NCBI GenBank assembly: GCA_026708965.1
Contig: JAPOTY010000020.1
Location: 4,017 to 68,016 of the forward strand
DNA: 64,000 nt
Source: Gammaproteobacteria bacterium
GTDB taxonomy: Bacteria > Pseudomonadota > Gammaproteobacteria > Steroidobacterales > Foliamicaceae
Direction: 5' to 3'
Shown here piece after piece: positions 1 through 11,229 of the stretch. A model generated the notes under the pieces. That model saw nothing but the letters and a program-made list of their open reading frames with translations, did not search any database and was not told where the DNA came from. Position 1 is the stretch's first letter. Every line of letters begins with the position of its first letter. Position numbers and translations under genes: made by a program.

Positions 1-703
1 GGACATGGCGGACTCGCATGCCGTGCAGGACGCATGGATTGCCATGAAGGTGGCGCGCGGCGCGAAGATCCGGGGACGCAAGGTGGGCCTCACGTCCAAG
101 GCCATGCAGCGCGCCATGAACATTGGCGAGCCGGATTACGGAACGCTGCTCGACGATATGTTCTTTGAGGACGGGGCGGAAATTGAAGCGGCGAGTTTCC
201 TCGATCCGCGGATGGAAGTGGAGATCGCATTTGTGCTCGACCGTCCGCTCGCTGGCGCAAACGTGACCGTGGAAGAGGCGCTGGCCGCCACCCGGGCCGT
301 GCATCCGTCGCTTGAGTTGATCGCGGCGCGCAGCTTCCGCGTGGATCCGGAAACCGGACGCGCCCGCACGGTCATCGACACGATCGCCGACAACGCGGCT
401 TCGGCGGGTGTGGTGCTGGGCGGGCGCGGATTCGATCCGTCGCAAATCGATCTGCCTTGGGCCGGCGGCATCCTCTACCGCAACGGCGAGGTGGAGGAAA
501 CCGGACTGGCGGCCGGGGTGCTGGGCCATCCCGCCAATGGCGTGTGCTGGCTGGCCCGCCGGTTCGCGGCGCACGGCATTGCCCTCGAATCGGGCGACGT
601 GATCCTGAGCGGCTCGTTCACGCAGCCGGTTCAAGCGCGCCCGGGCGATGAGTTTCTGGCCGATTTCGGGCCTCTCGGCCGGCTCGAGTGCCGTTTCACT
701 TGA
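1..703 (+). CDS. hpaH: 2-oxo-hept-4-ene-1,7-dioate hydratase (HpaH/HpcG family), 5' end cut by the window edge
   Basis: ORF 5..703. The blocks [39 protein letters not shown] and [10 protein letters not shown] align without gaps to my memory of E. coli HpaH from about residue 35. The true start therefore lies upstream of the window. hpaI follows directly. Confidence 0.85.
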
Positions 704-713
704 TGCCGATCGC

Positions 714-1481
714 ATGAAACTGCCCGAGAACCTATTCAAGAAGCGGCTCGGCGAAGACGGTGTGCAGTTCGGCCTTTGGCTGGGCATGTGCTCGCCGGTC
801 GCTGCCGAACTTTGCGCCTGCGCGGGTTTCGACTGGCTGCTGATCGATGCCGAGCATGCGCCCAACGATCTGCGTTCGGTGTTGCGGCAGCTCCAGGCCA
901 TAGAAGGCAGCGGAACGCAGGCGATCGCCCGCGTGGCGGACGGCGATCCCACGCGCGTCAAGCGCTACCTCGATGCGGGCGCTCAGTCGCTGCTGGTTCC
1001 CATGGTCGATACCGCCGAGCAGGCCGAGGCGCTTGCGGCCGCCGTTCGCTATCCTCCGCGGGGAGTGCGCGGGCTGGCCACTTCGATTACGCGGGCGTCG
1101 CGCTGGACGCAGATCGAGAACTACGCCGCTCAGGCCGAGTCGCAGATTTGTCTGATCGTGCAGGCTGAAACCGTAACCGGGCTTGATAATCTCAAGGCCA
1201 TTGCCGCTGTGGACGGCGTGGATTCCGTGTTCATCGGACCCTCGGACCTGTCCGCGTCCATGGGCTATCTGGGTCAGCCGAACCATCCGGAAGTGCAAGC
1301 CGCCGTGGCGCAGGCGCTGCGCGATATCGCCGCGTCGGGCAAGGCGCCGGGAACGCTGGCTGGTTCGCCGGAGGCCGTGCGGACGCACACCGCCAACGGC
1401 GCGAAGTTCTTGGGGATTGGCAGCGATACCGCCCTGCTGGCGAACGCCTCCAAGGGTTTGCTGAGTTCGGCTGCGGGCTGA
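714..1481 (+). CDS. hpaI: 2,4-dihydroxyhept-2-ene-1,7-dioate aldolase (HpcH/HpaI family)
   Basis: ATG at 714 lies in the frame of ORF 648..1481 (MKLPENLFKKRL...). LLIDAEHAPND and GVDSVFIGPSDLSASMG are typical HpcH/HpaI aldolase blocks. The gene sits directly after hpaH. Confidence 0.85.
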   Translation: MKLPENLFKKRLGEDGVQFGLWLGMCSPVAAELCACAGFDWLLIDAEHAPNDLRSVLRQLQAIEGSGTQAIARVADGDPTRVKRYLDAGAQSLLVPMVDTAEQAEALAAAVRYPPRGVRGLATSITRASRWTQIENYAAQAESQICLIVQAETVTGLDNLKAIAAVDGVDSVFIGPSDLSASMGYLGQPNHPEVQAAVAQALRDIAASGKAPGTLAGSPEAVRTHTANGAKFLGIGSDTALLANASKGLLSSAAG

Positions 1482-1541
1482 AAGATAAGGCGATGCTGTG
1501 CGGCGCTGCTCGCCTGCGGTCTGGGTCGGCTCCCGGCTGAA

Positions 1542-2045
1542 TCATCCGCAGCTAGAGAGAAACAGCCGAAACAGCACCCGGATTTCGTCCAGCGCTTCGG
1601 TCAGCCCGTGGCCGGCGCGCAGCAGATGCAGATGCGCGCCGTTGGCGCGGGCGAAATCGACGCTCCATTCCAGCGGCACGATATCGTCCTCCCAGCCATG
1701 CACCAGATGAGCCGGCGCATCCACCGTTTCCCCAAGCGGCGGCCAGTCCGGCACCGCCAGCGCCGGCGCCATCAGAAACAACCCGGCGGCCGGTTGCGCC
1801 TGCGCCGCGGCCACCGCCACGTAGCCGCCCATGCTGCTGCCCGCCAGCAGTATTTCCCTGCGGCAATCGCGCATGCGGGCGATGAGCTTTTTCGCTCTCT
1901 CGGCGGGATCGGGCATTCCCCTGTAGTCGATGGAATCCACCGCAAGGCCCGCGTCGCGGGCATCTTCCGCCAGCACCGTGATCTTTGTTCCCCAGGGCCC
2001 GCTTTCCTGGCCATGCGAAAACAGCACGATCCTCTTCTTTTTCAC
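1542..2045 (-). CDS. small alpha/beta-fold hydrolase (YqiA-like esterase)
   Basis: 167-aa ORF with the nucleophile elbow GSSMGG and a C-terminal GHG His region. High GC3 coding pattern. Confidence 0.6.
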   Translation of the reverse strand: MKKKRIVLFSHGQESGPWGTKITVLAEDARDAGLAVDSIDYRGMPDPAERAKKLIARMRDCRREILLAGSSMGGYVAVAAAQAQPAAGLFLMAPALAVPDWPPLGETVDAPAHLVHGWEDDIVPLEWSVDFARANGAHLHLLRAGHGLTEALDEIRVLFRLFLSSCG

Positions 2046-2146
2046 AGGCGCTCGGCGGGTGTTTCGGAAGCGCCGAAGCCCGGCCCGCCCATGTGCTGCT
2101 TGCGAATCATCCCGTCATCCTAGTGGCTGGCGTTCCGCAGCCCGGC

Positions 2147-2821
2147 TTAAGTGTTCACTACCGGGTAGCGGGGATCGCCCCAATCCTCGTCGGGATTCCG
2201 GATTAACAAATGGATGATTCGCGGCGTTAATTCGCTCATTATGGCGGCCCCGTCGCGGATCTGCTCCCGATTGATACTGCCTTTCCAGGTGGCCCCGCCA
2301 TGCACCAACTGATTCCGCAGGGTATAGAGGCGGGCCAGAACGATGGCGAGCACGGTGGCCGTCTGGCCTGTGCTGCGGAGCGCCCGGAAGGCTGCTTGGT
2401 TCGCCCGCTCGAATTTCTGCTTCCATTCCCGCTCGCCCATTCTTCCGCTTTGGAAATCCCAAAAAGGCTGAAACACGAACTCGTTGTTCAACAGTATGCG
2501 AATCGGGCCGGAAAACCGATCCCAAACCAGCGCGAACAGCAGATTGCCGTGATCGAGCGATACCAGCCTTCCCAAAAACCGTTGCAGCATGGCTTGCTCG
2601 GCTTCATCCGCATCGCGCTGAATTTCGTTGGCATAGGCCGCGTTAAGCGCAATCCACAGGAAAATGAACCGCGCGTCCTCATCGTCGCCGCACAACTCGG
2701 CCCGCTTCAGCCAACTCAACGCCCGGTGAACGCGAAGGCCAATCCGGTCGTCATGATCTTTTTCTAGGCACTTCGCCTGCGCCTCGAGCGCCGCGTAATC
2801 AAATTTCATGGTTCGCGCCAA
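2147..2821 (-). CDS. HEPN-like protein (candidate RNase) linked to an R-M pair
   Basis: 224-aa ORF lying 18 nt downstream of the methyltransferase stop on the same strand. LRNQLVHG gives an R-N-x3-H motif (R169 at 2315-2317, H174 at 2300-2302) in the C-terminal third of a mostly helical-looking sequence. I did not recognise any other family signature. Confidence 0.45.
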   Translation of the reverse strand: MARTMKFDYAALEAQAKCLEKDHDDRIGLRVHRALSWLKRAELCGDDEDARFIFLWIALNAAYANEIQRDADEAEQAMLQRFLGRLVSLDHGNLLFALVWDRFSGPIRILLNNEFVFQPFWDFQSGRMGEREWKQKFERANQAAFRALRSTGQTATVLAIVLARLYTLRNQLVHGGATWKGSINREQIRDGAAIMSELTPRIIHLLIRNPDEDWGDPRYPVVNT

Positions 2822-2839
2822 AATGCTGGCTCTCGTCGG

Positions 2840-4315
2840 CTACCACGCAAGCTCGGTTTGTCGTGTCCTCAAGCGCTTGGATTCAATTGTCCCGCCGCTC
2901 TCTTCCGCCAGCAGTCCGATGTCTAGGCTCGACAGCAGGCTTGCGGTTATAGGCCTTTTGGCATCCCAGAAAATAAACGACTGGAAGAATTTTCTGGCCG
3001 ACTCCGAGTCCAACAACTCCCTCAAGTATTCCGCTTCGCTTTTGCTCCAACAAGGCAGAAAGTAGCAAGTGTCGTCTAGCACTACTGGTCTCTCATTCAG
3101 AGGAGCAACGATCTGAAAATCTAGGTGCTTATAGAATCCTGAAATCGCGACCTTCCATGGAGCGAAACTGTAGCTGCCTACCCCGAAGACCGAATAGCGA
3201 GGTCGATTGCGGTAAATTGTGCTTGATCGAGCATCAAGCAGGTCAGCATGGGATTCTAGGTAGTTCCATGTAAGGGGGGCGCTGCTAGCAATTCGTGCTG
3301 TGTCTTCGCCTATCGAGGTTTGAGTGACCAGCATGTAACGGGACGGCGTACTTCCTTTCGAGAGTTCGGAACTCTTGAGCATTGGGAACAGGAAATTCCG
3401 CTCCAGCTTAACAGTCTCGCCAAGCCCGTTCTCGTACAAGTCAGGCTTGGCTCCCGGTCTTAACTCCATGACGCGCGAGCAATCGTGCTTGATTCCGGAG
3501 CGCCATTTGACGACAGAAGTTCCACAGAGATGCCCATAGGCATCCAGCGAGGCTAAATCCGCGACGAGGCGACTGCTACGCAGCCCGAATGTCTTGATCG
3601 GTTTGGATGACTCTAGCGTGGCAAAAGCTTTGCATTCCTTGGAGTGGCCTCCCGGCTTCAGGACGGCAACCAGCAGGCAGGCATCCACAAAAGCTCCGAA
3701 GTGATCGACCGCGCTGATGCCGTAGGTTGACGCTTTCTTGATTTGGAGGTTGTTTTTCCAAGCGTGGTGCAGCACTTTTCTGGCCACCGATGTCTTGCAT
3801 AACATCGACAACACTGCGACACGCCCCGAAAGCCATTCCAGAAGGCGTGTCAGCATCCATTCCGAGATATCGAAATTGCTTTTTCCGGTGATTGCTTCAA
3901 TGCCATTGAGGCGCTGGGCATTCGACTTGGCGGGCAGGTTCCTGCCATTGATGGAACCTAATGCGGAATTGGTGACCCAGGGTGGATTGCCTATGACCAG
4001 TATTGGCTCATCGAGCTCGCTTAATATCCTCGGCCAATTCTCAACAAAGAAGTTCGCTTGGCATACCTTCGCTCGCTTTGCCTCGCTTTGGGCGACTTCG
4101 ACATGATCGGGATTAATATCGAACCCGAGGAACAAATTGCAGTCTCGAAAGGCCGCTTCAGATGCTTGCAGAAAGGCGCCGATCCCGCAGGTGGGCTCGA
4201 CCACTGCCGCAGGAGATATTTTCAGCCGAATAAGAAGATCGCATACTTGCCTAGCAAGTGCTGCGGGCGTTTGAAAATCGCCAAGCTCCATCTTTTTTTT
4301 GGCACTAATAGCCAT
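2840..4315 (-). CDS. N6-adenine DNA methyltransferase, gamma-class (type II R-M modification subunit)
   Basis: ORF 2840..4399. The start is placed at MAISAKKK (4315), just after the upstream gene's stop at 4320. Motifs seen: GDFQTP, motif I EPTCGIGAF and motif IV VIGNPPW, followed by a C-terminal target-recognition-type region of about 260 aa. The gene is AT-richer than its surroundings. Confidence 0.85.
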   Translation of the reverse strand: MAISAKKKMELGDFQTPAALARQVCDLLIRLKISPAAVVEPTCGIGAFLQASEAAFRDCNLFLGFDINPDHVEVAQSEAKRAKVCQANFFVENWPRILSELDEPILVIGNPPWVTNSALGSINGRNLPAKSNAQRLNGIEAITGKSNFDISEWMLTRLLEWLSGRVAVLSMLCKTSVARKVLHHAWKNNLQIKKASTYGISAVDHFGAFVDACLLVAVLKPGGHSKECKAFATLESSKPIKTFGLRSSRLVADLASLDAYGHLCGTSVVKWRSGIKHDCSRVMELRPGAKPDLYENGLGETVKLERNFLFPMLKSSELSKGSTPSRYMLVTQTSIGEDTARIASSAPLTWNYLESHADLLDARSSTIYRNRPRYSVFGVGSYSFAPWKVAISGFYKHLDFQIVAPLNERPVVLDDTCYFLPCWSKSEAEYLRELLDSESARKFFQSFIFWDAKRPITASLLSSLDIGLLAEESGGTIESKRLRTRQTELAW

Positions 4316-4319
4316 CCGA

Positions 4320-4973
4320 TCAAGCAATCCTCTGGATCCCTCCAACAATACCTGCCTCTTCGATTGCCCGCTTGTATTGTAGCCGCCATTGAAGCGCATT
4401 GGAGATCGTGAGATACCCTATTTGAGGAGGATTCCGCAAGAGCTCTTCGGCAAGCTCCAGTGCTTCCGTGTCATCGATCGGCAAGTTGCGGTCGCTCATG
4501 AAAGCAATGATGTCCTCGGCGTTGCCATCGCGCGAGATGATGTCTCGGATTCCTTGAGTGGTTTGGTAATCTGCGGTTCGCGACTCGTCCACGTAAATGA
4601 CATGAAGAATGTCCAGTTTTGCGGTTTGCGTCTCTTCGTTGTCTGACTTCGAGTAAACAAACACAAGCAGGGAGTATCCGAGACCGCATACTTTCTGACG
4701 AGCTGACTTGAAAGGCGACGAAGATTGCGGCTGTTTGATGCTCGTTACCTTCATGTCCACATTGAGGTCAGGAAAGTCGATTCCTTTGGCCGAACTCCCG
4801 ATTTCGTAAACGTACTTGTTATTCAGAAGCCGTTGGAATTTGTGCTCCAGATAGGTGCCTACGGCCTTGCCGTCGGTAACGCCATAGAGGCTCGCTTCAT
4901 CATGCGCGGATTCCGAGACCGCAAACTCCATTGCCTCGGACAAAAGTTTGTCAATACTGAGTCTGGGCTTCAT
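4320..4973 (-). CDS. putative type II restriction endonuclease
   Basis: 217-aa ORF lying 4 nt upstream of the methyltransferase start, on the same strand, in the lowest-GC part of the islet. The segment GIDFPDLNVDMKVTS could be a compressed PD-(D/E)XK core. The call rests mainly on gene context. Confidence 0.55.
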   Translation of the reverse strand: MKPRLSIDKLLSEAMEFAVSESAHDEASLYGVTDGKAVGTYLEHKFQRLLNNKYVYEIGSSAKGIDFPDLNVDMKVTSIKQPQSSSPFKSARQKVCGLGYSLLVFVYSKSDNEETQTAKLDILHVIYVDESRTADYQTTQGIRDIISRDGNAEDIIAFMSDRNLPIDDTEALELAEELLRNPPQIGYLTISNALQWRLQYKRAIEEAGIVGGIQRIA

Positions 4974-5182
4974 GTAGTTGTGGATTTCACCCGAAACTCA
5001 CTACTCGTTTCAAGAGAAAATGACCGCTCGTTCAGACCGTGGCAGGCGGTGATGACATTGCGGCCTGCTCTCCTCGCGCACAAGCCAAAAACTATACTGA
5101 GAGCATAGCCTAGCTCCACACACACGGATTTAAGGAAGTCGCGAATGTCCTTCGCATATAATTTGGAGGTGAGTTGATACAC
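4970..5182 (-). CDS. small ORF upstream of the endonuclease (possible leader or controller; unproven)
   Basis: 70-aa ORF with a GTG start. Its TGA overlaps the endonuclease ATG as ATGA at 4970-4973. I saw no HTH signature. Confidence 0.2.
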   Translation of the reverse strand: MYQLTSKLYAKDIRDFLKSVCVELGYALSIVFGLCARRAGRNVITACHGLNERSFSLETSSEFRVKSTTT

Positions 5183-5205
5183 AGTTAGGCGGGGAGTTAT
5201 GCCGT

Positions 5206-7731
5206 ATGTGTTTTTCGTTTGATTCTTTCTTGCGTTCGAGCCAATCCATTACTGCGGCGAGCTTCGCCATTGCGGCGCTATTGGCCGCGCCGGGCGTTGC
5301 AGTTGCCCAGCAGGAACCCGGCGATGCCGCCGGGCCCATCGAAGAAGTGGTGGTGGTTGGCACCCGGGCGCTGCCGCGGTCGGTGGAGGAGTCCTCGGTG
5401 CCGGTGGACGTGATCGGCGCGGAGGACTTCGAGGATCAGGCCGGTTTCGAGATGACCAACCTGATTCGCGCTGCGGTGCCCTCGTTTCATGTCAGCGACA
5501 ACCCGTCGCGCGATCTCGCCGCCCTGCTGCGGCCCATCAACCTGCGCGGGCTGGCGCCTGATCACACGCTGGTGCTGATGAACAATAAGCGCCGCCATCG
5601 CGGGGCGGTGATCCAGTGGATTTCCAACGGCGCCTCGAACGGCGCCCAGGGGCCGGATATCTCGGCGATTCCGGCGATCGCGCTTAAGCGCATGGAAGTA
5701 TTGCGCGACGGCGCGGCCGCCCAGTACGGGTCCGACGCCATCGCCGGCGTGGTCAACTTTGTCCTCAAGGATGCCGCCGAGGGCATTTCGCTGCAAGCGC
5801 GCTACGCCGCCTATACCGAAAACTCCAGCGAGGACATGACCTCCGTGGCCGCCAATATTGGGTTGCCGCTCACCGCCAACGGCTTCGCCAATCTCAGCAT
5901 CGAATACGGCGAGTCGGCGCCCACCGACCGCAGCGTCCAGCATGCCCACGCCACAGCGCTCATCGGCTTAGGCATCCCGAACGTGGCCGTTCCCGCCAAG
6001 CCTTGGGGCTCGCCAACCGTCAACGACAGCATCAAGGCCGCCGCCAACCTGGGCTTGGATTTTGGCAGCGGCATGGCATTCTACGGCTTCGGCAACTACG
6101 CCAGCCGCGAGGTATCGACCGCGTTTTTCTTCCGCAGCCCCATGAACCGCAACGGCGTCTATAAAACCAGCGCCAACAAGTTCCTAGTGGGTGGCGAGGG
6201 CTGCGCTGACCGCTACGGCAATATCGACTCGACAGCGGGTAATCTGCTGTCCTTCCGCGATATGCTGGTTGCCGATTCCGGCTGTTTTTCGTTCGTTGAA
6301 ATGCTGCCGGAAGGCTTTACTCCGCAATTCGGCGCGAAGATATCCGACTTCTCCAGCGTTGCCGGCCTCAGGGGCGAGCTGGCCAGCGGCATTCTCTGGG
6401 ATGTTTCCGCCAGCATCGGCGAAAACAATCTCGACGCCTTCAACCACAATACCCTGAATGCCTCGCTGGGACCCGATAGCCCGCGCAATTTCGATATCGG
6501 CGAATACACGCAGCGTGAAACCAGCTTCAACGTGGATGTGTCGTGGCCGATCGATGTGGGCGCGTCCTCGGACCTCAACCTAGCCGCGGGGTTAGAAGCG
6601 CGCAACGAGGAATTCGAAATCACCAGCGGCGAGCGCGCCGCCTGGGAGGTTGGGCCGTACCAGCAATACGGCTTCGCCGCCGGCTCCAACGGCTTCGGCG
6701 GCTTCAATCCCGCCACTGCGGGAAGCTGGGACCGCGGCAACCTTGCCGGCTACGTGGACGTGGAGGTGAGCCCCACGGAAGTCTGGCGCCTCGGCGGAGC
6801 GCTGCGCTACGAGGACTTCGACGGCTTCGGCGGCACCACCAACTTCAAGCTCGCCACCCATTTGCGCCTCAACGACAGTCTGGCGCTGCGCGCCTCGATA
6901 GGCAGCGGCTTCCGCGCGCCCACGCCGGGCCAATCCAACGCGCGCAATCTATCGACGGTGGTCAACGCCGTCACCAACCAATTCGAGGAGCGCGGAACCA
7001 TCGGCTCCACCCATCCCGTGGCCTTGGCGCTGGGCGGTCGCGAACTTGATCCCGAGGAAAGCGATAATTTCTCCTTGGGATTGGTGTTCGCCGCCGAAAA
7101 CGGCTTCAGCCTGACGCTCGACTACTTCAGCATCGATATCGATGATCGAATCGCGCTGTCCGGGCTATTTGCCGTGACCGACGAAATCAAGCGGCAGCTG
7201 GTGGCGCAGGGGGTTCCCGAAGCCAACGAATTTACTTCGGTGCGCTTCTTCACCAACGATTTCGATACCGAAACCACCGGCTTCGACTTAGTGGCCGGCT
7301 ACGAATGGGACACCGCCAGCGGCAATGCCGGCATCGAATTTTCCTTCAACAGCACCGATACCGAAGTGGTGGACTCGTCCAGCATTTCAGCCGGCACCAT
7401 CAGGAACTTGGAGCACGGCTGGCCGGAAACGCGCTACAACCTCACGTACCGGCAGAACTTCAGGCAATGGGGCCTAGTGGCTCGCTACAGCTACTACGGC
7501 GACTGGTATGACGATCACGCCGGCGCGGATTTCGATGGCTACGGGCTTGCCGATATCCAGGTGCGCTACAACTTCGCGAACGGGCTGGCGCTTGCCGTGG
7601 GCGCCGAAAACGCGCTGGACGAGTATCCGGATGAAGCCATCAACTTCGGCAACGGTCGGCGCTACCCGCGCTATGCGCCGGCGGGCCACAACGGCGCGCT
7701 GATATTCGCCAAGCTCAGCTTATCGCTTTGA
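5206..7731 (+). CDS. TonB-dependent outer-membrane receptor
   Basis: 841-aa ORF with a signal peptide (AIAALLAAPGVAVAQ) and plug-region blocks (IEEVVVVGTRA, DVIGAEDF, VLRDGAAAQYGSDAIAGVVNFVLKD). A long beta-barrel-like Gly/Asn/Tyr-rich body follows. Confidence 0.9.
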   Translation: MCFSFDSFLRSSQSITAASFAIAALLAAPGVAVAQQEPGDAAGPIEEVVVVGTRALPRSVEESSVPVDVIGAEDFEDQAGFEMTNLIRAAVPSFHVSDNPSRDLAALLRPINLRGLAPDHTLVLMNNKRRHRGAVIQWISNGASNGAQGPDISAIPAIALKRMEVLRDGAAAQYGSDAIAGVVNFVLKDAAEGISLQARYAAYTENSSEDMTSVAANIGLPLTANGFANLSIEYGESAPTDRSVQHAHATALIGLGIPNVAVPAKPWGSPTVNDSIKAAANLGLDFGSGMAFYGFGNYASREVSTAFFFRSPMNRNGVYKTSANKFLVGGEGCADRYGNIDSTAGNLLSFRDMLVADSGCFSFVEMLPEGFTPQFGAKISDFSSVAGLRGELASGILWDVSASIGENNLDAFNHNTLNASLGPDSPRNFDIGEYTQRETSFNVDVSWPIDVGASSDLNLAAGLEARNEEFEITSGERAAWEVGPYQQYGFAAGSNGFGGFNPATAGSWDRGNLAGYVDVEVSPTEVWRLGGALRYEDFDGFGGTTNFKLATHLRLNDSLALRASIGSGFRAPTPGQSNARNLSTVVNAVTNQFEERGTIGSTHPVALALGGRELDPEESDNFSLGLVFAAENGFSLTLDYFSIDIDDRIALSGLFAVTDEIKRQLVAQGVPEANEFTSVRFFTNDFDTETTGFDLVAGYEWDTASGNAGIEFSFNSTDTEVVDSSSISAGTIRNLEHGWPETRYNLTYRQNFRQWGLVARYSYYGDWYDDHAGADFDGYGLADIQVRYNFANGLALAVGAENALDEYPDEAINFGNGRRYPRYAPAGHNGALIFAKLSLSL

Positions 7732-7773
7732 CCGGCAGCGCCGCCGCGTGCCGCGCAGTGAGGCCGATGCGGG

Positions 7774-8736
7774 TTAGCCGGCGTCCATGGGGGCGTTGGT
7801 ATCGACGACTCGGGTGGCGGCGCCAACGATGAGGGGATCCGGGCCGCTGATGATGTCGGTGTCCTTGTCGGGATAGGGGAGCTTCATCAGGAAGTGCTGC
7901 AAGCAGGCGATGCGGGCGCGCTTTTTGTCGTCGGACTTGATGACCGTCCAGGGCGCGTCGGCGGTGTCGGTGTAGAAGAACATGGCTTCCTTGGCCATGG
8001 TGTAGTGATCCCATTTATCGACCGACGCAATATCGATGGGCGAAATTTTCCATTGCTTTAAGGGGTCGGTGCGGCGGCTGTCGAAGCGGTGCGCCTGCTC
8101 TTCCTGCGACACGGAAAAATAGTACTTGAGAAGGTAGATCCCGCTATTGACCAGCATCCGCTCCAGCGCCGGGCACTGGCGCATGAACTCCAGGTATTCC
8201 GCCCGGGTGCAAAAGCCCATCACGCGCTCCACGCCGGCGCGGTTGTACCAGGAGCGGTCGAACAGCACGATTTCGCCTGCGGCGGGGAAGTGCGCCGCGT
8301 AGCGCTGGAAATACCACTGCGTGCGCTCGCGCTCGTCGGGCTTCTCAAGCGCCACGACGCGGGCGCCGCGGGGATTGAGATGCTCCATGAATCGCTTGAT
8401 GGCGCCGCCCTTGCCGGCGGCGTCGCGCCCCTCGAACAGCAGCAGCACCTTGGCGCCGGATTCCTTGATCCAGCGCTGCGCCTTGAGCAATTCCACTTGC
8501 AGCGCGGCCTTGCGCTTCTCGTAGGTGCGGCGCGGCATCCTGTCCTCGTAGGGATAGACGCCTTCCTGGAACACGCGCCGGATCACGTCGGAGGAATACT
8601 CAGGCCGCTGCGGGGCCTCAGCCGGCGATTCCGGGCTCGCCTCGCCGGTTTCCGATGCTTGCTCTTCGTTTTCCGAGCCCGTTCCGCGCGCTGCTTTGCG
8701 CGGTCCGGTGTCCTCCGGGACGACCTCTTCCCGCAT
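7774..8736 (-). CDS. ppk2: polyphosphate kinase 2
   Basis: LLLFEGRDAAGKGGAIKR (Walker A) and FDRSWYNRAGVERVMGF are classic PPK2 blocks. An acidic, low-complexity N-terminal tail precedes them. Confidence 0.85.
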   Translation of the reverse strand: MREEVVPEDTGPRKAARGTGSENEEQASETGEASPESPAEAPQRPEYSSDVIRRVFQEGVYPYEDRMPRRTYEKRKAALQVELLKAQRWIKESGAKVLLLFEGRDAAGKGGAIKRFMEHLNPRGARVVALEKPDERERTQWYFQRYAAHFPAAGEIVLFDRSWYNRAGVERVMGFCTRAEYLEFMRQCPALERMLVNSGIYLLKYYFSVSQEEQAHRFDSRRTDPLKQWKISPIDIASVDKWDHYTMAKEAMFFYTDTADAPWTVIKSDDKKRARIACLQHFLMKLPYPDKDTDIISGPDPLIVGAATRVVDTNAPMDAG

Positions 8737-8853
8737 AACTTGCCCCCGCCAAGAATGGAGCGCTGATTATAAGATGCCCGATTCAAGCTGTGCCGCGCCG
8801 TTTCGCATCCATCGCTAGCATGGCCGTTGCGCTTACGCTGCGGCATTCAAGCC

Positions 8854-8862
8854 GGGGGGGGG
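8854..8862. repeat. G9 homopolymer in the ppk2 / amidohydrolase divergent intergenic region
   Basis: Read directly: gcc ggggggggg atgatg. Confidence 0.95.
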
Positions 8863-9000
8863 ATGATGAGTCGTTTCCTCGGGTTCGCGTGGCGAGCGCG
8901 GTGCGATAATGGCCGCAGTGAAACCCCAAGGCCCCCACTCATGGACAATCGAGCGTCAGGACAGTGTGCGCAACCCGCTGCATTCGATAGGGAACACGGG

Positions 9001-10113
9001 ATGAATAGGCGTTGCAGAACATGGAGCCTGGCCCTGCTCGCCGCCGTGCCGCTGGCGGTTGGCGCCTCAGATCGGCTTGAACTTGCGGATTTCGTGCCGC
9101 CGCATGACGGCTGCTATGATCGCAGCGCTTGGCCGCAAACCGCCGTGGTGGATACGCATGTCCATTTTCGGCCCTTCGGCGGGCCGGCGCATGCGTTCGA
9201 CGACGTGGTCGCATTCATGGAGCGCACCGGGGTGCGGTTCGCGAATGTTTATGGCATCGGCCAGATGCTGCCGTTGGGCTCGCCCTGCACCTACTATCTG
9301 GATTGCCCGGGGGTGCCGGTCAGGCCCACGCTCAAGAACGATTTTTCCAATGTTCTGAACCTGCTGGACAGCCCGCCTGATAACGTCCACCTTACGCTGT
9401 CGATGACTTTCTTCGATCTGGAACGGCCCGATAAGGTGCTGGAAGGCATCGCCCTCCTTGATGAGGAATTTCCGGGCCTGTTCCGCTGGGCGGGAGAGGT
9501 TAATCTGGTTAAGCAGGCGCTGTTCGGAAACAGCCACCGGGCGGTTCCCTTGGAAGCCATAGCGCGCTGGAAGCCCTTCATGTCGCTGCTGCGCGAGCGC
9601 GGCATCCCGTTCGCCGTCCATTCGGACTTGGGCAGCGACACGGAGCCCATGAAATACGCGGCCTGGATCGAAGAGGTCTTAAGGCTTTATCCGAACAATC
9701 CGATTGTGTGGATGCATATGGGCCTTTCACGCGAACTGACCCGCATTGATCCGCAAGCGCACTTAAGTTTCATGCGCTCTCTGATGGACCGCTATCCGCT
9801 GCTGATGGTGGATATATCCTGGCGCATCATCGACGACGCGCTATTCTCGAAGCCCGAGCTGCGCGGCGCCTACTTGGGCTTCATTGAACAATATTCCGAG
9901 CGTGTTCTGCCGGGCTCGGACTTCGTGGCCTCGGCCGACAAGAGCTTCGAGACCTACCGCGAGGAGTTGCGCGTGACCAGCTCCATTCTGGGCCATCTGA
10001 GCAACGAGGCTTTCCGCAATATCGCGCTGGGCGAGAATTACTTTCGCCTGTTGAGCTTGGATTTCTCCGCGCCGCCGATCTGCTCCTCGGCGCCCGCGCA
10101 ACCGGCAGGCTAA
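9001..10113 (+). CDS. secreted metal-dependent amidohydrolase-family protein
   Basis: ATG at 9001 lies in the frame of ORF 8827..10113 and gives a signal peptide (MNRRCRTWSLALLAAVPLAVGA). VDTHVHF is the usual amidohydrolase N-terminal metal motif, and a later H/D-rich TIM-barrel-like pattern (FAVHSDLG) is present. Confidence 0.6.
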   Translation: MNRRCRTWSLALLAAVPLAVGASDRLELADFVPPHDGCYDRSAWPQTAVVDTHVHFRPFGGPAHAFDDVVAFMERTGVRFANVYGIGQMLPLGSPCTYYLDCPGVPVRPTLKNDFSNVLNLLDSPPDNVHLTLSMTFFDLERPDKVLEGIALLDEEFPGLFRWAGEVNLVKQALFGNSHRAVPLEAIARWKPFMSLLRERGIPFAVHSDLGSDTEPMKYAAWIEEVLRLYPNNPIVWMHMGLSRELTRIDPQAHLSFMRSLMDRYPLLMVDISWRIIDDALFSKPELRGAYLGFIEQYSERVLPGSDFVASADKSFETYREELRVTSSILGHLSNEAFRNIALGENYFRLLSLDFSAPPICSSAPAQPAG

Positions 10114-10119
10114 TTCCGA

Positions 10120-11229
10120 GTGGTTGACCATTTGCGCTCCCGGGCCTGGTGGCTGGGCGTAGCGCTGGCGGGGGCGGTGGCCGTTCTAGCGAGCTACTCC
10201 GCCGAGTGGGTTGGGGAATCGCTGCTGGGATTCGAGAGAAGCCCGGTGAGCGCCATCATGCTGGCCATCATCATCGGCATGGTGCTTTGCAATGTGGTGG
10301 CGCTGGCGCAGCGCGCCGGAGCGGGCCTGAAGTTCTGCTCCACAACGATATTGCGAATTGGCATCATGCTGCTGGGATTCCGGCTGAGCCTGCTGAGCGC
10401 GGGCAAGTTCACGCTGGTGGCCTTGCCTTTCGTGATCGTGGCGATTGCCGTCGGCCTTGCAGTGATTGGCGGGCTGGGGCGGCGGCTGGGCCTGTCGCGC
10501 AGCCTTGGGGGCCTCATTGCAGTGGGAACCAGCATATGCGGGGCCACGGCGATCGTGGCGACTGCACCGCTGATCCGCGCACGGGAATCGGAGGTGAGCT
10601 ACGCCATCGCCTGCATCACGGTATTCGGGGTCGCGGCGATGTTTCTGTATCCGATTCTGGCGCATGGATTCTTCGCCGATTCGCCCGAGCTGGCGGGCCT
10701 GTTCCTCGGCACCTCCATCCACGAAACGGCCCAGGTGGCCGGCGCCGGAATGATGTACCAGGCGCAGTACGGCGCGCCGGTGGCGCTGGATATCGCCACG
10801 GTCACCAAGCTGGTGCGCAACCTCTGCATGATCGCCGTGATTCCGCTGGCGGGCATTCTTTTCGGCGCGGCCCGCGAGCCGGGCGAAACGCGCGGCTTAA
10901 GAGCGTATCTGGCAATGGTTCCCTGGTTCGTGGCGGGGTTCGCCCTGTGCTCGGCGCTGCGGACGCTGGGCGATGCCGGGGAGCGTGCCTTCGGCATTCT
11001 TGAGCCGCAGGACTGGCAATGGGCGGTGGGCTTTCTTCGCCATGCCGCCGAGACTCTGCTGCTGATCGCCATGGCCGCAGTGGGCCTGAATTCAAGCTTT
11101 GCCGGCATTCGCCGCATCGGCTTTCGACCGTTTCTGCTGGGCCTGCTCGCAGCCGCGGTGGTGGGCGGCGTGAGTTTCGTGATGATTTCGCTGGCCGCTT
11201 CGCCGCTGCTGGAATTGCTGGGCTATTGA
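10120..11229 (+). CDS. yeiH: YeiH/UPF0324 family putative sulfate exporter (polytopic membrane protein)
   Basis: 369-aa highly hydrophobic ORF. The blocks GTSICGATAIVA and FLGTSIHETAQVAGAG match my memory of the UPF0324 family. Confidence 0.75.
   Translation: MVDHLRSRAWWLGVALAGAVAVLASYSAEWVGESLLGFERSPVSAIMLAIIIGMVLCNVVALAQRAGAGLKFCSTTILRIGIMLLGFRLSLLSAGKFTLVALPFVIVAIAVGLAVIGGLGRRLGLSRSLGGLIAVGTSICGATAIVATAPLIRARESEVSYAIACITVFGVAAMFLYPILAHGFFADSPELAGLFLGTSIHETAQVAGAGMMYQAQYGAPVALDIATVTKLVRNLCMIAVIPLAGILFGAAREPGETRGLRAYLAMVPWFVAGFALCSALRTLGDAGERAFGILEPQDWQWAVGFLRHAAETLLLIAMAAVGLNSSFAGIRRIGFRPFLLGLLAAAVVGGVSFVMISLAASPLLELLGY

Follow-up and report, generated by a model that had tools for sequence, protein, structure and literature searches.

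PrrC and RloC are anticodon nucleases whose genes lie within type I (and III) restriction-modification (R-M) loci, and proteins of this type carry an N-terminal ABC-type ATPase domain fused to a HEPN domain. A comparable neighbourhood occurs in the stretch of DNA analysed here (64,000 nucleotides (nt) of contig JAPOTY010000020.1 from a Gammaproteobacteria bacterium, assembly GCA_026708965.1; hereafter the window), in which genes for a type II restriction endonuclease (4320-4973) and a DNA methyltransferase (2840-4315) are followed on the minus strand by a gene for a HEPN-like protein of 220 amino acids (aa; 2147-2809). The initial annotation read these genes as one operon and proposed a two-layer unit of restriction plus an abortive RNase, naming PrrC/RloC with type I systems as the precedent for suicide RNases wired into R-M loci. 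That precedent stands but is incomplete, since a wider linkage has been published, in which HEPN genes of at least 16 HEPN clades accompany many types of R-M system (PMC3710099). The two-layer unit itself did not hold up, as the cassette of R-M genes moves independently of the HEPN-like gene, which in turn persists where the cassette is absent. We consider it likely that the two became neighbours by insertion rather than as a co-inherited three-gene unit, and that they represent two independent layers of different age at a genus-specific hotspot.

With PrrC and RloC the locus shares a gene for a predicted HEPN-type RNase next to restriction genes, and with it the idea of a suicide backstop. 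It differs in that the protein is only 220 aa long, has no ABC-ATPase domain and matched no ATPase family, in that the HEPN-like gene showed no conserved linkage to any R-M system, and in that its R-M partner is a mobile type II pair that travels independently of it.

The limits of the R-M cassette were located by blastn, using window positions 1-10200 as the query against related loci. Loci of the sister species (L001/L024, 94% identity) matched positions 1-2822 and the match ended there, and three unrelated loci (L022 in congener G018, L032 and L033) matched only positions 2837/2838-5018/5019, at 79-80% identity. Because these two homology blocks abut between the methyltransferase and HEPN-like genes, the cassette boundary excludes the HEPN-like gene. 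At the downstream edge, homology ended 2-5 nt past the methyltransferase stop codon and resident homology resumed ~14 nt ahead of ATG 2809, so that the homology edges place the junction of resident and inserted DNA at 2810-2837. At the upstream edge, ~46 nt before the endonuclease ATG were conserved, and the whole cassette (2838-5019, minus strand, 2.18 kb) thus comprises this leader, the endonuclease gene and then the methyltransferase gene. The ends of the cassette were also inspected for repeats and for an integrase; the aligned edges contained neither, and homology simply stopped there.

No homologue of the HEPN-like protein (224 aa in the initial annotation) was found beside the cassette at L022, L032 or L033; its neighbours were TIR/NOV_C genes at L032, and PIN-Phd, MazE and HicB genes with an integrase fragment at L033. 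Congener G018 carries the R-M pair (88% and 80% aa identity) in the middle of one contig (C119) and the HEPN-like gene at the ppk2 junction (C39/C172), and congener G017 carries the pair (68% and 60%) without a HEPN-like homologue. From these comparisons, the R-M pair is evidently a self-contained, mobile two-gene cassette of 2.18 kb. Remnants of NspV-type endonucleases were also seen in two further congeners (64 N-terminal aa at 59% identity with one in-frame TGA; L025:9101-9286 in G001 and L026:8726-8911 in G011), at another locus.

The tight arrangement that gave rise to the operon reading is real. Four minus-strand open reading frames (ORFs) occupy 2147-2821, 2840-4399, 4320-4973 and 4970-5182 in the window's ORF listing, with the reported ATGA overlap at 4970-4973 between a 70-aa ORF and the endonuclease gene, and with a 4-nt gap from the endonuclease stop codon to the methyltransferase ATG 4315 when the 491-aa start is used. 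The 18-nt gap reported ahead of the HEPN-like gene applies only to TTG 2821, the furthest start that its ORF reaches; the conserved start is ATG 2809, which gives the 220-aa product and a gap of 30 nt. Given where the cassette landed, this packing is probably accidental and not the signature of a co-evolved three-gene system.

Base composition was described initially as a single low-GC islet. The dip is real (GC 0.50-0.53 across ~2850-5250 vs 0.64-0.69 in both flanks), but the HEPN-like gene lies outside it with an intermediate composition (GC 0.576). GC at third codon positions (GC3) was 0.60 in both R-M genes, 0.71 in the HEPN-like gene and 0.77-0.84 in the flanking hydrolase, TonB-dependent receptor and ppk2 genes. 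The composition of the region therefore falls into three strata.

A system in which endonuclease, methyltransferase and HEPN-like genes were inherited and transferred together, as proposed initially, would account for the tight same-strand packing here and in conspecific contigs. It is nevertheless highly improbable, given the cassette boundary between the methyltransferase and HEPN-like genes, the occurrence of the cassette without a HEPN-like gene at three other loci and in G017, the difference in GC3 (0.60 vs 0.71), and synteny by which the HEPN-like gene predates the insertion.

That synteny was seen in orthologues of the HEPN-like gene with 67-91% identity, which occupy the same ppk2 / HEPN-like / abhydrolase / HpcH / FAA-hydrolase order without this R-M pair. 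Five loci (L002, L004, L007, L027 and L029) kept the order with no R-M genes at the site, the HEPN-like gene directly following ppk2 in L007, L027 and L029, and a sixth (L028) kept it with a type III R-M system there instead. In the sister species G015 the HEPN-like gene was intact (91% identity), accompanied by an inverted 39-aa fragment of the endonuclease and two 33-aa fragments of the TonB-dependent receptor. These remnants indicate that the common ancestor had the R-M pair and the receptor, which decayed in G015 without loss of the HEPN-like gene. Ratios of nonsynonymous to synonymous substitution (dN/dS) against five orthologues were 0.09-0.22; by such comparisons the gene is under purifying selection and persists without the cassette. 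Full-length copies were found in 6 of 22 genomes of the genus, including that of the window, with remnants in others. At two loci a small gene for an Xre/MqsA-type helix-turn-helix (HTH) protein stood immediately upstream of the HEPN-like gene (L001:7684-7959 and L002:7563-7829), sharing its orientation at one of them and running divergently at the other; the product of the small gene may be a regulator or an antitoxin-like partner.

Homologues of the HEPN-like protein outside the species were surveyed at 80 loci, with neighbouring ORFs assigned by a simple longest-ORF heuristic. An NspV-type methyltransferase or intact endonuclease occurred within 6 kb of the HEPN-like gene at 0 of the 80 loci. 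Thus, the homologues do not recurrently follow R-M pairs, an outcome that the initial annotation had itself named as counting against its proposal. The neighbours scanned numbered 251 (141 immediate and 110 second neighbours, positions ±1 and ±2), and families were tallied as the 25 commonest per scan. Among the families listed, no methyltransferase or restriction endonuclease family recurred. A minimal nucleotidyltransferase gene, as in HEPN-MNT pairs, was absent from the window and did not recur among the neighbours listed.

The insertion site belongs to a variable interval between two conserved genes. Its outer flank is ppk2 (7774-8736, minus strand), which in relatives adjoins either the HEPN-like or an abhydrolase gene, and its inner flank is a 167-aa alpha/beta-hydrolase gene (1542-2045, minus strand) that is a core gene of all 22 congeners. 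A further abhydrolase gene of 274 aa, which lies between the HEPN-like and 167-aa abhydrolase genes in most congeners, is missing from the window (2045-2147) and from G015 and G019. In all 12 sampled congeners without a HEPN-like gene, ppk2 and an abhydrolase gene were adjacent, 17-102 nt apart. In the genome of the window, the cargo between ppk2 and the HEPN-like gene consists of the NspV R-M pair and a TonB-dependent receptor gene (5206-7731, plus strand), a single-gene block of host-like GC whose DNA homology is confined to 5206-7732 and of which an orthologue (78-90% aa identity) lies elsewhere in G006, G016 and G009. The receptor, as cargo, shows that the hotspot is not exclusive to defence genes.

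Between the endonuclease and receptor genes lies a spacer with the divergent upstream region (5020-5205), which contains the insertion point of a strain-specific element. Conspecific contigs (99% identity; L034:2304-5833) carry at 5124-5138 an additional GmrSD-like gene (PADLOC HEC-05, 703 bits; Pfam GmrSD_N) and a gene for a 530-aa ABC/AAA_21 ATPase (AriAB-like, 97 bits; Pfam AAA_21/AAA_15). The alignment with L034 breaks at 5124/5138, which marks a presence/absence polymorphism within the species. Other members of the genus had other systems at the same junction. In G012, a type III Mod/Res pair (618 and 589 bits) with a DUF2335 gene occupies the ppk2/HEPN junction (L028:10400-15413). In G003, a type IIG (MmeI/Eco57I-like) enzyme, apparently split into ORFs of 748 and 346 aa, lies beside a 45-aa HEPN-like remnant (L132:4231-7596). 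Fragments of type III Mod (107 aa, 71%) and Res (150 aa, 63%) remain in G015 (L024:10754-11153 and L040:4179-4754), where the site has the appearance of a graveyard of earlier cargo and ppk2 is truncated at its 5' end.

Overall, the site looks like a recombination and defence hotspot of the genus in which the HEPN-like gene would be the oldest cargo. P2/P4-type hotspots are an established example of defence islands and integration hotspots (PMC9122126), and the site resembles them in that one junction holds defence cargo that varies by strain and species together with remnants of earlier cargo. It differs in being chromosomal and placed between metabolic genes, with no integrase, tRNA or repeats seen, and in also holding the non-defence TonB-dependent receptor.

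Several of these observations weigh against mere adjacency. The linkage of HEPN genes with R-M systems is a documented theme (PMC3710099), and the same junction beside the HEPN-like gene holds a type III system in G012, a type IIG enzyme in G003, a GmrSD-like gene in conspecifics and type III remnants in G015. Cargo was present in 4 of 7 genomes with a HEPN-like gene or remnant, compared to 0 of 12 without (Fisher p = 0.009, uncorrected for phylogeny and from small numbers). Such a pattern would also fit a functional affinity of the HEPN-like gene for R-M systems generally, which is the main rival to independent insertion. Under it, the HEPN-like RNase would be a generic backstop for whichever restriction system is adjacent, kept inactive as long as restriction works and freed when it is blocked, as in PrrC but with no fixed partner, and R-M systems would be preferentially kept beside it. 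The occurrence of three or four unrelated restriction types at the PPK2/HEPN junction, vs none in the 12 congeners lacking the gene, speaks for such a role, as do the R-M linkage of at least 16 HEPN clades and the probable co-transcription of the HEPN-like gene with the endonuclease and methyltransferase genes here (30-nt gap, no terminator). However, the type III and IIG systems lie on the opposite strand to the HEPN-like gene, in G003 it was the HEPN-like gene that decayed and the IIG system that stayed, and four lineages keep the gene with no R-M system beside it. Moreover, this R-M system was found at none of the 80 surveyed loci and no R-M family recurred among the neighbours listed, the protein lacks an ATPase or sensor domain like those of PrrC and RloC, and the hotspot also took in a receptor that has no part in defence. 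On balance, we regard a generic backstop as unlikely.

Insertion next to an older resident would have proceeded as follows. The solo HEPN-like gene would have been at the site before other cargo came. The NspV-family cassette, encoding a PD-(D/E)XK endonuclease and a gamma-class N6-adenine (N6A) methyltransferase, would then have inserted as a self-contained 2.18-kb unit, at a point ~15-30 nt ahead of the start codon of the HEPN-like gene, in an ancestor shared by this species and its sister. In the younger layer, the methyltransferase would guard host sites by adenine methylation and the endonuclease would cut unmodified incoming DNA. The HEPN-like gene would have lost its former upstream region, and its transcripts now probably arise by read-through from the R-M genes. 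A scan of the minus strand within 1900-5400, including the 30-nt gap between the methyltransferase and HEPN-like genes, gave no sigma-70-like promoter or terminator; the sole terminator-like stem was on the plus strand at 5141-5155, fewer than expected from shuffled sequence. Since only ~14 nt of native leader is left and the gap contains neither signal, the HEPN-like gene is presumably transcribed together with the endonuclease and methyltransferase genes.

The assignment of two of the genes to a type II R-M pair was borne out, and the pair was placed in the NspV family. The 217-aa protein (4320-4973, minus strand), initially only a candidate endonuclease, was identified by profile searches as a type II restriction endonuclease. 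It matched NCBIfam NF052465 ('type II restriction-modification system restriction endonuclease') with 337.1 bits against a cutoff of 290, residues 5-213 aligning to positions 1-209 of the 209-position model, and PADLOC REase_II with 323 bits, and an identical protein carries the precomputed Pfam label PF27258 NspV. Its homologues number at least 8000 (all 8000 scored candidates passed). The NspV family has been classed as PD-(D/E)XK by Orlowski and Bujnicki (PMC2441816).

The cognate methyltransferase gene (2840-4315, minus strand) begins 4 nt downstream of the endonuclease gene, and the same pair was kept in L022, L023, L032 and L033. Its product was confirmed as a gamma-class N6A methyltransferase by PADLOC MTase_II (PDLC03310, 528 bits, aa 32-494 of the 519-aa ORF) and by motif order. 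The EPTCGIGAF and IGNPPW motifs noted initially are present at aa 40 (motif I) and aa 108 (motif IV, NPPW at aa 110-113), and they are followed by ~380 residues with a C-terminal target-recognition region, as in the gamma-class layout. The closest solved relative was no nearer than M.BseCI (E = 0.0017). The longer 519-aa start was dropped in favour of 491 aa: the PADLOC match begins at aa 32, a 60%-identical homologue aligns from M29 of the longer ORF, and gene callers on identical contigs give 491 aa from ATG 4315.

NspV recognises TTCGAA (PMC2779907). In the genome of the window, TTCGAA occurred 296 times vs 713 expected (observed/expected (O/E) 0.42, z -20), ranking seventh among the 64 six-base palindromes. 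This depletion is compatible with NspV specificity but is not unique to TTCGAA; a probable target is TTCGAA itself or a similar palindrome. By far the most avoided six-base palindrome of the genome (G000) was GTCGAC (45 observed vs 576 expected, O/E 0.08), and GTGCAC, GACGTC and CACGTG were likewise strongly depleted; these point to past or present restriction systems of those specificities. With NspV-type systems the pair shares an endonuclease above the curated equivalog cutoff, a same-strand adjacent gamma-class N6A methyltransferase in a compact operon of endonuclease then methyltransferase, and membership of a very widespread family; it differs in that its specificity is predicted from the family and in that no gene for a controller protein is present. 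The pair is an ordinary member of the NspV family.

The 70-aa ORF (4970-5182, minus strand) that had been counted as the first member of the operon is probably spurious. It straddles the cassette edge at 5019, is not conserved and was not called on the identical contigs L038/L039. No tblastn match to it was found beside endonucleases of 88% and 68% identity, and it matched no family in Pfam, NCBIfam or PADLOC. A role as a controller (C) protein was considered and ruled out, as the ORF had no HTH match, is unconserved and crosses the cassette edge.

The 220-aa protein was called HEPN-like from an RNxxxH motif. This description was supported by the motif itself (RNQLVH in the window protein), by the arrangement of helices and by matches of its relatives to PF18735, but no solved HEPN fold was matched. 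Residues R165, N166, Q167, H170, G171 and G172 showed no variation among 50 homologues. In a wider set of 120, reaching down to ~35% identity, the R, N, Q and H were at least 90% conserved and G171 remained invariant; the most conserved block of the family is LYTLRNQLxHGGATW. The arrangement R165-N166-x3-H170 corresponds to the Rx4-6H motif of HEPN domains with a polar residue after the arginine. HEPN domains are defined as helical bundles in which the motif falls where helix 3 ends and the loop to helix 4 starts, and in which an insert separates helices 2 and 3 (PMC3710099). An AlphaFold2 (AF2) model of the protein was all-helical (predicted local distance difference test (pLDDT) 83.7, predicted template modelling score (pTM) 0.84), with a hairpin of helices 21-38 and 44-59, a helical insert (71-143), a helix that ends at the motif (147-169), a loop and a final helix (181-204). 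As judged by secondary structure only, the model has the helix and motif arrangement of that definition.

Among the 120 relatives, 22 matched PF18735 (RiboL-PSP-HEPN) weakly (E up to 0.05, best 3.6e-5), and no other Pfam family recurred. The window protein itself gave nothing significant in Pfam, NCBIfam, PADLOC or PDB, as a single sequence or as a 50-sequence profile, and Foldseek of the AF2 model against PDB and BFVD gave no match with E below 0.1. The fold is assigned from the motif, the helix topology and the weak profile matches, and on these grounds a HEPN-type protein is plausible; we infer that it would act as a dimeric, metal-independent RNase using R165, N166 and H170. With RiboL-PSP-HEPN proteins it shares the R-[N]-x3-H motif in an all-helical protein, and this is the only Pfam family matched repeatedly by its relatives. 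It differs in that the window protein is unmatched (E above 0.1) and the matches of its relatives are weak, as graded by E-value and not by the gathering cutoff. Neither a fusion to L-PSP nor a ParB operon was seen, and the partner that recurs here is a WYL-WCX regulator. The PF18735 family is distantly related to AbiD/AbiF (PMC3710099).

Alternatively, the 220-aa protein could be no defence RNase at all, and instead a helical protein of another role (e.g. a regulator or binding protein with a HEPN-like motif) whose gene is conserved beside metabolic genes. The lack of matches for the window protein in sequence searches of Pfam, NCBIfam, PADLOC and PDB, the lack of a Foldseek match with E below 0.1 in PDB or BFVD, and ancestral neighbours that are ppk2 and hydrolase genes are all consistent with this. 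We consider it improbable nonetheless, because R-N-Q-x2-H-G-G does not vary among the 50 closer homologues and its conservation is at least 90% in the wider set, the motif falls precisely where a long helix ends, ahead of the loop and final helix, as in the HEPN definition (PMC3710099), and 22 of 120 relatives match RiboL-PSP-HEPN with no other family recurring. In addition, the gene is patchily distributed (full-length in 6 of 22 genomes of the genus), and its frequent neighbours are WYL regulators, toxin-antitoxin genes and other variable genes.

The family to which the protein belongs is large, with 2306 matches from one search and, at 50% identity, 1762 representatives. Its members occur in Gamma-, Alpha- and Betaproteobacteria, and none of Pfam, NCBIfam and PADLOC has a model for it. 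The family is uncharacterised, yet of a known kind. Some members are longer (e.g. P0121, 492 aa; P0141, 394 aa; P0132, 528 aa), some being tandem duplications of the HEPN-like domain and others carrying an N-terminal extension of ~310 aa without a Pfam match. Fusion domains were considered as a clue to function; Pfam searches of P0121, P0132, P0141 and others gave no informative additional domain.

The only recurrent neighbour of the HEPN-like gene in the survey was a WYL-WCX regulator gene, immediately upstream on the same strand. It was found among the immediate neighbours at 16 loci by Pfam and at 19 of the 80 loci by tblastn, mostly in Alphaproteobacteria. The regulator is usually divergent from a gene for a 1,100-aa protein with RNase_H_2 and AAA_11/12 domains, the helicase part of which resembles Mokosh MkoA and which is 81-93% identical across genera. 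In a representative locus (L080:1557-6645), the HEPN-like gene lies 41 nt downstream of the gene for a 327-aa WYL-WCX regulator; ~18 further loci are similar, among them L078, L086-L088, L091, L094, L095, L097, L098, L105, L107, L108, L110, L112 and L118. The genes for the WYL regulator, HEPN-like protein and helicase-nuclease have the appearance of a mobile module of three genes and of a candidate defence system.

A broader proposal would join the hotspot to this module. In it, the HEPN-like gene would be the founding member and anchor of a genus-wide hotspot, and its product a partner-independent abortive RNase that backs whichever system lies upstream (type II NspV, IIG, III or IV GmrSD-like), wired either by read-through or by sensing the failure of restriction, with a sister form under WYL-WCX control beside a Mokosh-like helicase-nuclease in Alphaproteobacteria. 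We regard this as a long shot.

Had a hard-wired operon of R-M and suicide-RNase genes been true, it would be a new type II analogue of PrrC. As insertion next to an older resident, which we favour, the locus is instead a worked example of how operon-like packing can arise through insertion at a hotspot, with layers that can be dated from cargo that is intact, polymorphic within the species, or decayed in the sister species. The solo HEPN-like genes form a large, unannotated family that appears to be under purifying selection and is found in variable regions. The history of the hotspot and the WYL-linked module are the parts that deserve follow-up, and the module is a reasonable candidate for a defence system.

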